From a phage: a stretch of DNA of 64,000 nucleotides. The stretch lies in sequence record PZ452578.1; one strand, 5' to 3'. Positions 2,136 through 64,000 of the stretch are shown here, piece after piece. Positions within the stretch are counted from its first letter, which is position 1. Each line of letters opens with the position of its first letter. The notes beneath the pieces were generated by a model that had not been told where the DNA came from, searched no databases, and saw only the letters and a list, made by a program, of their open reading frames with translations. The position numbers and the translations under genes were made by a program.

Positions 2136-3151
2136 TGTGTTGCCTCTACATATAACTGATTTGCATATTGAATAAGTGCTTCGCGATCAGAATCAGTGAT
2201 GTCTGGAATTGCATTAATGTATTCTTCCATCAATGTCTGAAGAGATTGAACTTCAACTTCTTCACTGTCATCTGACTCGACAGAGTTATCAATCTTTGAC
2301 ACAACTCGTAATGAATGCACAACTTTTTCTAGTTCAGATTCGAACTTCGTTAGATTTTTGTCTACTTCAGTTACTATAACACGTACTGATAGATTTGTAA
2401 AATCTTTATAGTCAATTTTTCCTTTAAATGGATAATGAATTCTACGATGCCAGGTAGTATTGTTTGGAATAAATTCCATTCGTTCTGTTTCTGTATCAAA
2501 CATCCAGAACCCGCGAGGGTCATTCTCGTCACCTGCTGTTAGTGTCCATGGTGTCCCAATATATCTGACGTTTGCAGCCTCAGAAATAGTATGGAAGTGA
2601 CCAGACCACACTTCTTTATAAGTCTTAAGGAAATCAGGTTCAAGACCGTGAGATTTCATTCCTTTATAAAAATAAAATCCATTCAGTTCCCAGTGACCAA
2701 CACAAAAAGAAGCAGATGAAGTTTTGATGTGTTCAAGAATTTCACCAGTATTTTCTTCACACATCCAAGGAATTAAATCAATCAAACATCCGTCAAAATC
2801 TACTGTAGTAGGCTTATCATATACTTTAACATTAGGATATTTAGCCAAAAGCTCAGTAGAAGCATTTGGATGCATTACATTTTTATAGTGGAGATCGTGA
2901 TTTCCTACAATAGTATGTAATGTGATTCCAGCGTCGTCAAGCATTTGAACTATTTCACGGGCAAACTCCATAGTTTTATGCGTGATCGCTTTTCGTACAT
3001 CAAAAATATCACCATATTGAATCCATACAGTAATTCCATTTTTCTTAGAATATTCTATCGCTTGCTTAATTCCATCAATTTGAATACCGCGAATCCACTC
3101 ATCATCGGCTTTAACGCCTAAATGCCAATCACCCAAGTTTAGTATTTTCAT
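2132..3151 (-). CDS. 47: Recombination endonuclease subunit gp47 (Mre11/SbcD-like phosphoesterase)
   Basis: 339-aa ORF; calcineurin-like motifs GDWHLG, GDIFD, GNHD; adjacent to gp46 as in T4. Confidence 0.9.
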   Translation of the reverse strand: MKILNLGDWHLGVKADDEWIRGIQIDGIKQAIEYSKKNGITVWIQYGDIFDVRKAITHKTMEFAREIVQMLDDAGITLHTIVGNHDLHYKNVMHPNASTELLAKYPNVKVYDKPTTVDFDGCLIDLIPWMCEENTGEILEHIKTSSASFCVGHWELNGFYFYKGMKSHGLEPDFLKTYKEVWSGHFHTISEAANVRYIGTPWTLTAGDENDPRGFWMFDTETERMEFIPNNTTWHRRIHYPFKGKIDYKDFTNLSVRVIVTEVDKNLTKFESELEKVVHSLRVVSKIDNSVESDDSEEVEVQSLQTLMEEYINAIPDITDSDREALIQYANQLYVEATQ

Positions 3152-30350: not shown

Positions 30351-30679
30351 TCAATTAGAAAATAAATTTATCCAAGATTGTTCTTTAATTAAAAACGGCT
30401 CAGAATCATATGCCATTAAACTTTGGGTGATTAGTCCTTTAAAAGGCCCATCAATAAATTCCATGGTAAAATATGGAATTTTATTCATTAGCCGTGCATT
30501 AGGAGCCGTGCACAAAACTCTGCATCCTTTGAATACGCCTTTTTGTAATTTGTATTGCTTGGGATAAAATTCGCTCAAAATGTTATTATTTGCTAAAATT
30601 TCAAAATGATTCACCAATTTATTTTTAATAGTTTTTGGCGAAAAATAAAGATATTCGAAAAGCTGAGTGTCTGTCATCA
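30351..30679 (-). CDS. Hypothetical protein (109 aa from MMTDTQ)
   Basis: ATGATG start overlapping upstream TGA. Confidence 0.4.
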
Positions 30680-31216
30680 TTGCATTCCGATTACGAAAAA
30701 CTGTGGACGAGTAATACCACCAATACAACATTTAATATTACAGCAGCAGTGTACAGTGTCAATATGGACACTATAAATCTTATCCATATCAGGAGATTTG
30801 ACAGGCTCATCAATTATATATAAAATTCGCGAAAGCGATAAACCTCTGAACTTGCTTCCTTTATTACCAATAAAACTGCGCACAGAATCAGTAAATAAAC
30901 GAAAACGTATATCATCATTAGAATAACGCGAAAATTCCTTTTTAATGTTATTTGCAGAAATTTTAGCGTAAGCTGAAGTATTAGAAAGAACAATAACTGT
31001 TCCGCCATCATACAGCCAATTAGCAGCAAAGTTAGTCACAGCAATTGATTTACCGGATTGACGTCCACCATCTAGTCGAAGTGTGCAATACTGTTTAAGT
31101 AAGTCTTCAAATGGCGGGATATATTCGTTTTTACAAATTTCTTCTACTCTAGCATCAGAATGGTGTGTAAAAGCATTCATCAGGGATAGATAAGGACCAG
31201 TTAAAAATGTTCTCAT
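30677..31216 (-). CDS. P-loop ATPase resembling the N-terminal ATPase core of terminase large subunits, Cys-rich C-terminus
   Basis: 179 aa; Walker A DGGRQSGKS, Walker B ILYIIDEP; C-terminal HCCCNIKCC. Confidence 0.5.
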   Translation of the reverse strand: MRTFLTGPYLSLMNAFTHHSDARVEEICKNEYIPPFEDLLKQYCTLRLDGGRQSGKSIAVTNFAANWLYDGGTVIVLSNTSAYAKISANNIKKEFSRYSNDDIRFRLFTDSVRSFIGNKGSKFRGLSLSRILYIIDEPVKSPDMDKIYSVHIDTVHCCCNIKCCIGGITRPQFFVIGMQ

Positions 31217-31356
31217 TTCTTCTCTCTAAATTTGGGCCATTCCGTGGCGCATGAATTGTCCATTTCTGTATTTACCCATTACCGCGCTTGGGCTCGACCT
31301 TATTACAGGTTGGCGGGAATCCCTCACAAAATCATGAGGTCCAGGTTGTTCCCATG

Positions 31357-31830
31357 TTATTTGAATGATTTAACGTACTGAATAGAACCTTTACTATTCA
31401 CAAAGGCAATTTTACCATTTTTGTTATACATGGTAGCAGTACGTTGATAGCCATAAGTTTGTTTACCAGATTGATAACCAACTAATGCGAAATTATCTTC
31501 ACCCATTTTATTCTGTTTAGCGCGAATACGTTCATGGCCATGTGCCATAAGAACCTTAGCATCACCAGTTGCAATGGATCTACGAGTTTTTTCATCTTCA
31601 ACTGTATTAACAAAGTCGTCAAATGAATCAAATTTAGCATGAGATTTATTATACAGTTTTCCATCTACTGCATAATTATATCCTTGTACATCCATCTCAA
31701 CTTCTGTACCATCATCCAGTACAGCAGTGATTTTCTGTCCTTTTTTAAATTTCAAAAGATCAGTAAAAGATTCAGCAATAATTTGAGAATTAATAGCTGC
31801 TTCAGTAATAAATTCTTGATAGGTTTTCAT
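31357..31830 (-). CDS. Internal protein (IPII/IPIII family) with capsid-targeting N-terminus
   Basis: 157 aa; MKTYQEFITEA leader with protease-site-like ITE/A. Confidence 0.7.
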   Translation of the reverse strand: MKTYQEFITEAAINSQIIAESFTDLLKFKKGQKITAVLDDGTEVEMDVQGYNYAVDGKLYNKSHAKFDSFDDFVNTVEDEKTRRSIATGDAKVLMAHGHERIRAKQNKMGEDNFALVGYQSGKQTYGYQRTATMYNKNGKIAFVNSKGSIQYVKSFK

Positions 31831-31846
31831 GTGTTTCCTTTAATTT

Positions 31847-32164
31847 TTATTCTTTAGGGAAGTTTTTAGAATATGCATCATAAAGCTTATTTCCAATACG
31901 GCGGAAAACTCTAGCCGCAAAACGATTTTCTGGGTTTTTAATCATGATTTGCATCATATAAGTACCCGCGTCAGAAAGAGCTTCTTCATAGTACCCGTTA
32001 ATTTCTTTAAGAGTCCTACGTTTACCACCAGGACCATCAACAGTGATTTTCCATTTACCTGTAGAAGTACGACTTGGCGGCTCAACTTGTTCAATCCAGA
32101 TATAACCGCCTTCTACACGTTGTCCTGCAGCAGATTCTGCAATAAATTCTTGATATGTTTTCAT
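31847..32164 (-). CDS. Internal protein (IPII/IPIII family)
   Basis: 105 aa; MKTYQEFIAES leader; early promoter upstream. Confidence 0.7.
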   Translation of the reverse strand: MKTYQEFIAESAAGQRVEGGYIWIEQVEPPSRTSTGKWKITVDGPGGKRRTLKEINGYYEEALSDAGTYMMQIMIKNPENRFAARVFRRIGNKLYDAYSKNFPKE

Positions 32165-32220
32165 GTGTTTCCTTTAAATATTTTAATTAGTATAATTTAT
32201 CTATTTAAGTAACTGTGAAT

Positions 32221-32250
32221 ATACTATCACAATTCCAAGAGAAAGTAAAC
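32221..32250 (-). promoter_or_regulatory. T4-type early promoter (internal protein genes)
   Basis: minus strand GTTTAC-18nt-TAGTAT with TGTGA. Confidence 0.5.
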
Positions 32251-32254
32251 AGCT

Positions 32255-60863: not shown

Positions 60864-64000
<3,137 letters not shown>

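Follow-up and report, generated by a model that had tools for sequence, protein, structure and literature searches.

A phage DNA stretch of 64 kb (record PZ452578.1; hereafter the window, with positions counted from its first letter) encodes, on its minus strand at 30677..31216, a 179-residue stand-alone protein with the motifs of an ASCE (additional strand, catalytic E) P-loop nucleoside triphosphatase (NTPase). Judged by sequence and gene order, this open reading frame (ORF) is the orthologue of bacteriophage T4 vs.8, an already known and ordinary catalogued gene in its usual place. We consider it probable that vs.8 is a conserved, non-essential early gene, that its product is a minimal, complete ASCE NTPase with a core resembling that of the large terminase subunit (TerL), and that it plays an accessory role together with its neighbour Vs.7. 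With this, Vs.8 would gain a first reasoned fold and family assignment, as a minimal ATPase with a remotely terminase-like core. The locus finding is otherwise ordinary, namely a catalogued T4 gene next to denV, whose presence/absence polymorphism is well known. What could matter is a candidate RNA element upstream of the gene: the best-studied phage would have in it a structured RNA that is conserved.

The segment in the window is mosaic and T4-like (Tequatrovirus), and its top 24-kb matches are RB27 and RB14, at ~97%. By BLASTP, 176 of the 179 residues (98%) are identical to residues 41-219 of T4 Vs.8 (NP_049732; UniProt P13318), an uncharacterised early protein that belongs to PHROG 1488; the three substitutions in T4 are S127K, C157Y and I161S. 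The PHROG 1488 profile covers residues 3-179 of the window protein on profile positions 2-177 of 177 (E 2.1e-79). Gene order agrees with this identification. On the same strand of T4 the genes run e – ipIII – ipII – denV – vs.8 – vs.7 – vs.6 (GrcA-like) – vs.5, and onward vs.4 – vs.3 – regB – vs.1 – vs – tk, while the window reads e – a 105-aa internal protein (IP) gene – an Ip4-like IP gene – vs.8 – vs.7 – vs.6 … regB. The order e – IP(s) – (denV) – vs.8 – … – regB – vs.1 – vs – tk is kept in phages whose Vs.8 is 30-45% identical. T4 and the window share vs.7 downstream, an IP/denV region upstream, an ATGA junction between vs.8 and vs.7 and a GC-rich element ahead of vs.8; they differ in what lies directly upstream, which is denV and ipII in T4 and the Ip4-like gene in the window. 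An earlier reading of this DNA, made from the sequence alone, had placed the ORF at the position where T4 carries denV and had regarded it as an unusual gene there. T4 carries vs.8 itself at this position, with denV one gene upstream, between vs.8 and ipII. Nor does the gene represent an unusual acquisition, since it is simply T4's conserved vs.8, and the 1.6-kb locus is matched by 713 phage records at the megablast level. The sequence-only reading had itself stated that it would be refuted if the gene proved to be the regular occupant of this locus in T4, and this is what the comparison shows.

The sequence features from which that reading had started are all present on the minus strand of the 179-aa ORF. 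The Walker A motif (P-loop) GGRQSGKS, of the terminase-style form R-Q-x-G-K-S/T, spans residues 50-57 (31046..31069) and aligns with SRQLGKT of the T4-type large terminase gp17. The Walker B motif ILYIIDEP spans residues 131-138 (30803..30826), aligns with MIYIDE of gp17, and contains Asp136 and the putative catalytic Glu137; just before its strand lies an invariant R124-G125 pair (30842..30847), which aligns with an RG of gp17. For comparison, gp17 is encoded on the plus strand of the window at 62169..>64000, where a motif scan of the translation places SRQLGKT from 62649 and YIDECAF from 62925. The Lys of Walker A and the Asp of Walker B are 80 residues apart in Vs.8 and 89 in the window gp17, in line with the proposal that the two are spaced alike. 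In an alignment of 19 homologues, reaching down to 40% identity, D49-G-G-R-Q-S-G-K56, R113, R124-G125, I134, I135, E137, P138 and Q179 are invariant, and D136 is conserved in at least 90%. An AF2 model of the 179-aa protein (mean predicted local distance difference test score, pLDDT, 82; predicted template modelling score, pTM, 0.83) has two N-terminal helices followed by five strand-helix units. The model shows no further domain and the ORF ends at residue 179, so the observation that the protein has no nuclease domain stands. The Cys-rich tail that had also been singled out does not hold up as a feature. This stretch, HCCCNIKCC (residues 156-164; 30725..30751), is a variable loop: in the same alignment its cysteines are not conserved beyond the closest T-even group, which rules out a Cys-rich zinc knuckle or conserved metal site, and residues 160-168 of the model form a low-confidence loop with pLDDT below 50.

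If the conserved motifs are read together, Vs.8 would be a complete minimal ASCE (RecA-like) P-loop NTPase, with GGRQSGKS, R-G, IIDE and a C-terminal strand that finishes with an invariant G-x-Q. It would bind and hydrolyse ATP via K56 and R52 in the P-loop, with E137 as the catalytic base, and could work as a nucleotide-dependent switch or as a small motor subunit.

The ATPase had been proposed to be of the terminase type. Searched as a single protein, Vs.8 has, apart from PHROG 1488, only weak matches, to the PHROG 2 model of the terminase large subunit (E 1.3e-5), Terminase_6N (E 0.1) and AAA_14. Across the family, PHROG 2 is matched by 18 of 19 members (best E 1e-6), Terminase_6N by 16 of 19 (best E 6.8e-5, always under the gathering score) and AAA_14 by 18 of 19; further matches to terminase models are to PHROG 7579 and PHROG 5989. 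Helicase models are matched far more rarely: Pfam DEAD by one of 19 members (E 0.077), and a PHROG DNA helicase model by one of 43. The last figure refers to a broader profile of 43 sequences, which combines the narrow set with distant relatives from an exhaustive search. When this profile was searched against 177,635 PDB sequences, T4 gp17 ranked first, second and third (E 6e-7 to 9e-6), and the TerL of P74-26 was found at E 1e-3. In an hhalign comparison with the window gp17 it reached 94.8% (E 5e-8) over 117 columns, with RQxGK[ST], RG and hhhhDE in register, whereas the window thymidine kinase (Tk) and deoxynucleoside monophosphate kinase (gp1), used as controls, gave 15% and 0.8%.

The closest comparison is thus with TerL ATPase subdomain I, the N-terminal domain of gp17 (PDB 2O0H/3CPE), at ~15-20% identity over the aligned core. 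The differences are considerable. Vs.8 has 179 residues against 610 for TerL; it lacks the lid (subdomain II), the RNase H-like nuclease domain, the TTT-type coupling motif and all parts specific to packaging, and ends at residue 179 after strand 5 with G-M-Q. It is early in T4, unlike the late TerL, and has no link to the small terminase gene or the portal gene; genes 16 and 17 proper lie at ~61.7-64 kb of the window. We conclude from these profile comparisons that Vs.8 is likely an ASCE NTPase of the helicase/terminase branch whose nearest characterised sequence relatives, although remote, are TerL ATPase cores. The proposed terminase-type assignment is thus upheld in so far as a TerL core is nearest by sequence profile; it does not hold as membership of the terminases, the relationship being remote and below threshold in Pfam, and Vs.8 forming a separate family.

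Several observations weigh against this assignment or against the role attached to it. The 179-aa protein scores 12.7 bits with Pfam Terminase_6N, where the cut-off is 22. The narrow 19-sequence profile finds nothing significant among PDB sequences and gives just 16.7% with the window gp17 in hhalign, and in the PDB search with the 43-sequence profile an unrelated signal recognition particle (SRP)-receptor GTPase appears at E 1e-5. Foldseek against the PDB returns weak, mixed matches for Vs.8, and the fold matches fit superfamily 2 (SF2) helicase domains as well as terminase. In some distant members the Lys of Walker A is replaced by His and the Glu of Walker B is missing; therefore, catalysis is not universal in the wider Vs.8 family. 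In STML-198-like phages vs.7 is missing from the locus, and a 76-aa ORF unrelated to Vs.7 follows vs.8. In literature searches, vs.8 was present only in omics tables. Finally, in T2 (AP018813; L044 5757..6430) two 2-bp deletions break the vs.8 frame, the annotated piece being only 57 aa; laboratory T2, at least, can therefore do without the gene.

With respect to the distant members, proteins P0056, P0058, P0060, P0064, P0065, P0067 and P0068 carry G-H-[ST] rather than G-K-[ST] in Walker A and D-x-A/S rather than D-E in Walker B. Going by these motifs, they may represent a non-catalytic or chemically different subfamily.

The mixed structural matches raise the alternative that Vs.8 is a generic minimal RecA-like or SF2-helicase-type domain, and that its terminase matches reflect no more than shared Walker motifs and hydrophobic strands. 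We regard this as fairly unlikely. Only terminase models are matched consistently (PHROG 2, 7579 and 5989, Terminase_6N, gp17 and P74-26 TerL), and the alignment extends over ~115 columns with the terminase-style R-Q-x-G-K-S/T and R-G-x(n)-hhhh-D-E signatures. Compared with the RecA1 domains of SF2 helicases (Mfd, DDX1, DDX20 and others), Vs.8 is a single domain with motifs I and II only; the second RecA domain is missing, as are the Q, Ia, Ib, III (SAT) and VI motifs, and the Tk and gp1 controls score far lower. A minimal ASCE NTPase with a TerL-like core remains the reading that we prefer.

The sequence-only reading had called the protein a terminase-like fragment. The sizes of its relatives do not bear this out. 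A search of 5.8 billion proteins recovered relatives in 27 clusters, all from T4-like phages and with identities down to ~40%, and an exhaustive search of 1.84 billion representatives recovered 50 relatives, all of 66-259 aa and none of terminase length. The typical member is a stand-alone phage protein of ~140-185 aa. On this evidence the relationship between Vs.8 and TerL is apparently ancient, Vs.8 representing an old, separate single-domain family and not a recent gene fragment. Its own distant relatives are found among PHROG 2586 and other small (140-175 aa), uncharacterised stand-alone P-loop proteins of large phages: PHROG 2586 is matched by 40 of the 43 profile members, and its group shares the layout of Vs.8, with an N-terminal helix, GRQxGK[ST], RG, DEP and a C-terminal hhhhG-x-Q. 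These relatives sit elsewhere in their genomes, one very distant homologue lying beside rIIA and topoisomerase genes. Matches in BFVD belong to phages of Proteus, Vibrio and Aeromonas and to jumbo phages of Pseudomonas.

We asked whether vs.8 could instead be a decaying, functionless relic, as the two frameshifting deletions in T2 and the truncated versions that occur in some records might indicate (BFVD holds two T2 fragments of Vs.8). The ratio of nonsynonymous to synonymous substitution rates (dN/dS) is 0.04-0.13 in vs.8 pairs with unsaturated dS, by which measure the gene is under purifying selection. Together with motifs that are invariant down to 40% identity, intact copies in hundreds of phage genomes and detection of the Vs.8 protein in T4 infection (PMC9697503), this makes decay extremely unlikely. 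The ORF can accordingly be accepted as a real gene, as had been supposed: it has homologues to ~40% identity, its dN/dS is low, and its T4 orthologue yields early RNA and protein.

Immediately downstream, at 30351..30680 on the minus strand, lies a 109-aa ORF that is 99% identical to T4 Vs.7. The end of vs.8 overlaps the beginning of vs.7 by 4 nt (ATGA), which confirms the ATGA junction described for these two ORFs; in many diverged T4-like lineages, too, the two genes adjoin or overlap, stop to start. From this arrangement, vs.7 would be translationally coupled to vs.8. Vs.7 has no match in Pfam, NCBIfam, PADLOC or PDB sequences, and neither PADLOC nor NCBIfam was informative on Vs.8. A time-resolved study of transcripts and proteins in T4 infection (PMC9697503, supplementary files 4 and 6) assigns both Vs.8 and Vs.7 to the class 'early-RNA_early-Protein'. 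For the T4 orthologue, such early expression speaks against a late packaging role. In our proposal, Vs.8 would be made early and in fixed proportion with Vs.7, would probably act with Vs.7, and would have an accessory early role in host take-over, nucleic-acid transactions or counter-defence, as opposed to packaging or UV repair.

A more specific form of counter-defence can be envisaged, in which Vs.8 mimics a terminase core, either as an early decoy or inhibitor of host systems that sense TerL (Avs-type NOD-like receptors, NLRs) or as a poison of a competitor's packaging motor, the latter being the interference with foreign packaging machines that the sequence-only reading had raised. Avs proteins sense terminase, and a remote TerL-like core combined with early expression would suit such a function. 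So would the location of vs.8 in an accessory-gene block with regB, internal proteins and, at the vs.4 position of a syntenic locus, an Acb2/Tad1-family gene, as would its dispensability in T2, which is typical of counter-defence genes. We nevertheless hold mimicry to be very unlikely: an identity to the gp17 core of ~15-20% is poor for a mimic, the strict conservation of catalytic residues suggests an enzyme and not a passive decoy, and no PADLOC or anti-defence family is matched.

The first description of this region had noted that no endonuclease V homologue could be recognised, and our searches agree: tblastn with T4 DenV found no denV-like sequence in the 64-kb window (no match at E<10). 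Among T4-like loci, denV is present between e and vs.8 in ~24 of 34, at varying positions; in some, T4 among them, it immediately precedes vs.8, whereas teqsoen has it between e and the IP genes. One of the 34 loci has only a 42-codon denV remnant, and the gene is absent between e and vs.8 in the window, RB14, G50, T2 and STML-198-like phages. T2 is the classically UV-sensitive T-even phage, and its denV-less locus fits this. In the window, the place that denV occupies in teqsoen corresponds to the spacer between e and the IP gene (32165..32254, minus strand): the window aligns to teqsoen, which has the same IP genes, on either side of the 417-nt denV, with no trace of denV in between. A denV remnant in the gap upstream of vs.8 was considered and ruled out, this gap being homologous to T4 sequence downstream of denV. 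As far as these comparisons go, denV is best described as a facultative cassette in a known hyperplastic region, and its absence here as ordinary polymorphism separate from vs.8.

It could still be asked if vs.8 replaces denV, functionally or positionally, as a non-homologous factor in DNA repair or another DNA transaction, given that denV is missing from the window and that the P-loop fold is common to many DNA enzymes. This is almost certainly not the case. T4 and most T4-like phages carry both genes next to each other, and vs.8 occurs with or without denV; because the two co-occur, a repair role replacing denV is excluded. Moreover, the clean, cassette-sized gap is elsewhere, between e and the IP gene, and Vs.8 has no match to Pfam Pyr_excise and no similarity to DenV.

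The T4 orthologue is annotated in RefSeq with 219 aa (NC_000866 64253..64912; L001 4254..4913), from a start 40 codons further upstream than that of the window ORF. In the window this extension is closed by an in-frame TAG at 31226..31228 on the minus strand, four codons before the vs.8 ATG, as seen in the translation of the upstream region, and the window is also 9 nt shorter than T4 there. All Vs.8 homologues begin M-[RK]-x-[FL]-LT; the 40-codon extension shows no conservation as coding sequence, and a GC-rich RNA element overlaps it. The original T4 entry, X04567, gives the 179-aa form as an alternative start. These comparisons suggest that the RefSeq start is probably 40 codons too early and that the 179-aa form is probably the true T4 product, the 219-aa model having arisen because the GC-rich upstream region was read through as coding.

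That GC-rich region is a 127-nt structured-RNA candidate at 31231..31357 on the minus strand, between the Ip4-like gene and vs.8 (covariance model 68 bits, E 2e-14). Its G+C content is 50%, versus 35% for the window. A near-identical element is found in T4, where it lies downstream of denV (L001 4817..4943, minus strand) and is treated by the RefSeq annotation as the N-terminus of Vs.8. A longer version is present in the same place in diverged T4-like phages in which Vs.8 is 30-45% identical. Wherever a T4-like locus carries the element, vs.8 follows it, immediately in all but one, in which an IP gene has been inserted between the two. No Rfam family matches the 127-nt element and ARAGORN found no tRNA in it. 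There is no homologue in E. coli, and pattern matches in bacterial genomes are no more frequent than chance would give and do not pass the covariance model. Reading the element as a small ORF was ruled out, as the spacers between its conserved blocks vary by non-multiples of three and stops occur.

Fourteen copies of the element were aligned with MAFFT, and we drew its helices manually on this alignment. The structure comprises three helices nested in one another (P1, P4 and P3), a hairpin (P2) that branches off, an inner hairpin whose loop is invariant, and a 3' block that is conserved. P1 occurs in the variants CCG/CGG, CGCCGA/UCGGUG, ACAC/GUGU, CGC/GCG, CCUG/CAGG and CUCG/CGAG. When tested on the same sequences that gave the structure, 83% of cells were paired, and 12 pairs had changed on both sides, versus 6.8 in shuffles (one of 500 shuffles was as high). 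The covariation score was 0.221, versus 0.096 for shuffled alignments (none of 500 reached it) and 0.02-0.07 with the partners slid by 1-3 columns. A covariance model built from the diverged T4-like copies scores the T4, T2, RB14 and teqsoen copies at 60-72 bits. In a 42-sequence model alignment, covariation was above all controls, although this alignment was made by fitting to the model, which biases it in favour of the structure. With a mixed alignment, RNAalifold recovers only an invariant long-range pairing without covariation, and the fold of the single sequence shows no unusual stability (z +0.56). These data point to a conserved structured-RNA candidate that appears confined to phages and lies outside any RNA family, and that would be more novel than vs.8 itself. 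Two variations among individual copies were also seen: in the T2 copy a G of the inner hairpin, which is invariant otherwise, is changed to T, and one T4-like contig (L025 5048..5305, minus strand) has two tandem copies upstream of vs.8, scoring 111 and 74 bits.

A ~45-nt core of the element, ACCUGUAAUAAGGUCGAGCCnnnGnGCGGUAA, is shared, at 91-93% identity, by unrelated rV5-like phages that lack vs.8 (in slur16, L003, the core is at 2505..2542); there it lies ahead of a tRNA cluster, in a gap without annotation. The core was also observed in viral contigs of 46-70 kb (L013, L018, L027, L029 and L032) and in L023, all without vs.8. Of these, L018 resembles Klebsiella siphophages, and in slur16, L018 and L023 the core is within a few hundred nucleotides of tRNA genes. 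In the 46-70 kb contigs it sits in units closed by long terminal stems (GUUGUGAC/GUCACAAC), an arrangement that suggests an independent, mobile small-RNA gene.

The element may regulate vs.8 in cis, act in processing or stability, or be a small RNA in its own right. A more far-reaching idea is that vs.8, vs.7 and the RNA belong to a single early module conserved among T4-like phages, in which the RNA would represent a new class that controls translation of the ATPase, riboswitch-style or by processing, or else serves as its partner or substrate. We think this unlikely.

Upstream of the element, the window carries two internal-protein genes on the minus strand. The first, at 31357..31830, encodes a 157-aa Ip4-like internal virion protein of the DUF7412 family (Pfam E 6e-96; phrog_3155) with a MKTYQEFI capsid-targeting leader; it occupies the place of T4 denV and ipII, and its equivalent in RB14 is annotated as Ip4. 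The second, at 31847..32164, encodes the 105-aa internal-protein-like product (phrog_3966), which has the same N-terminal leader; in tblastn, the initial 12-14 residues of T4 IpII and IpIII match here. The region between e and vs.8 as a whole (31357..32254; compare teqsoen, L042, and RB14, L043) is a cassette-shuffling hot spot, with varied IP genes that all carry the MKTYQEFI leader, denV at two positions or none, and breakpoints exactly at gene boundaries and early-promoter sequences.

We also noticed that orthologues of vs.7 and vs.8 are labelled 'endoribonuclease (RegB)' in MN895436 (teqsoen_92/93), LN881729 and MK962755, and in clusters P0004 and P0006. Because the true regB lies ~1.5 kb downstream, this label is a mis-annotation that has been propagated through several GenBank records.

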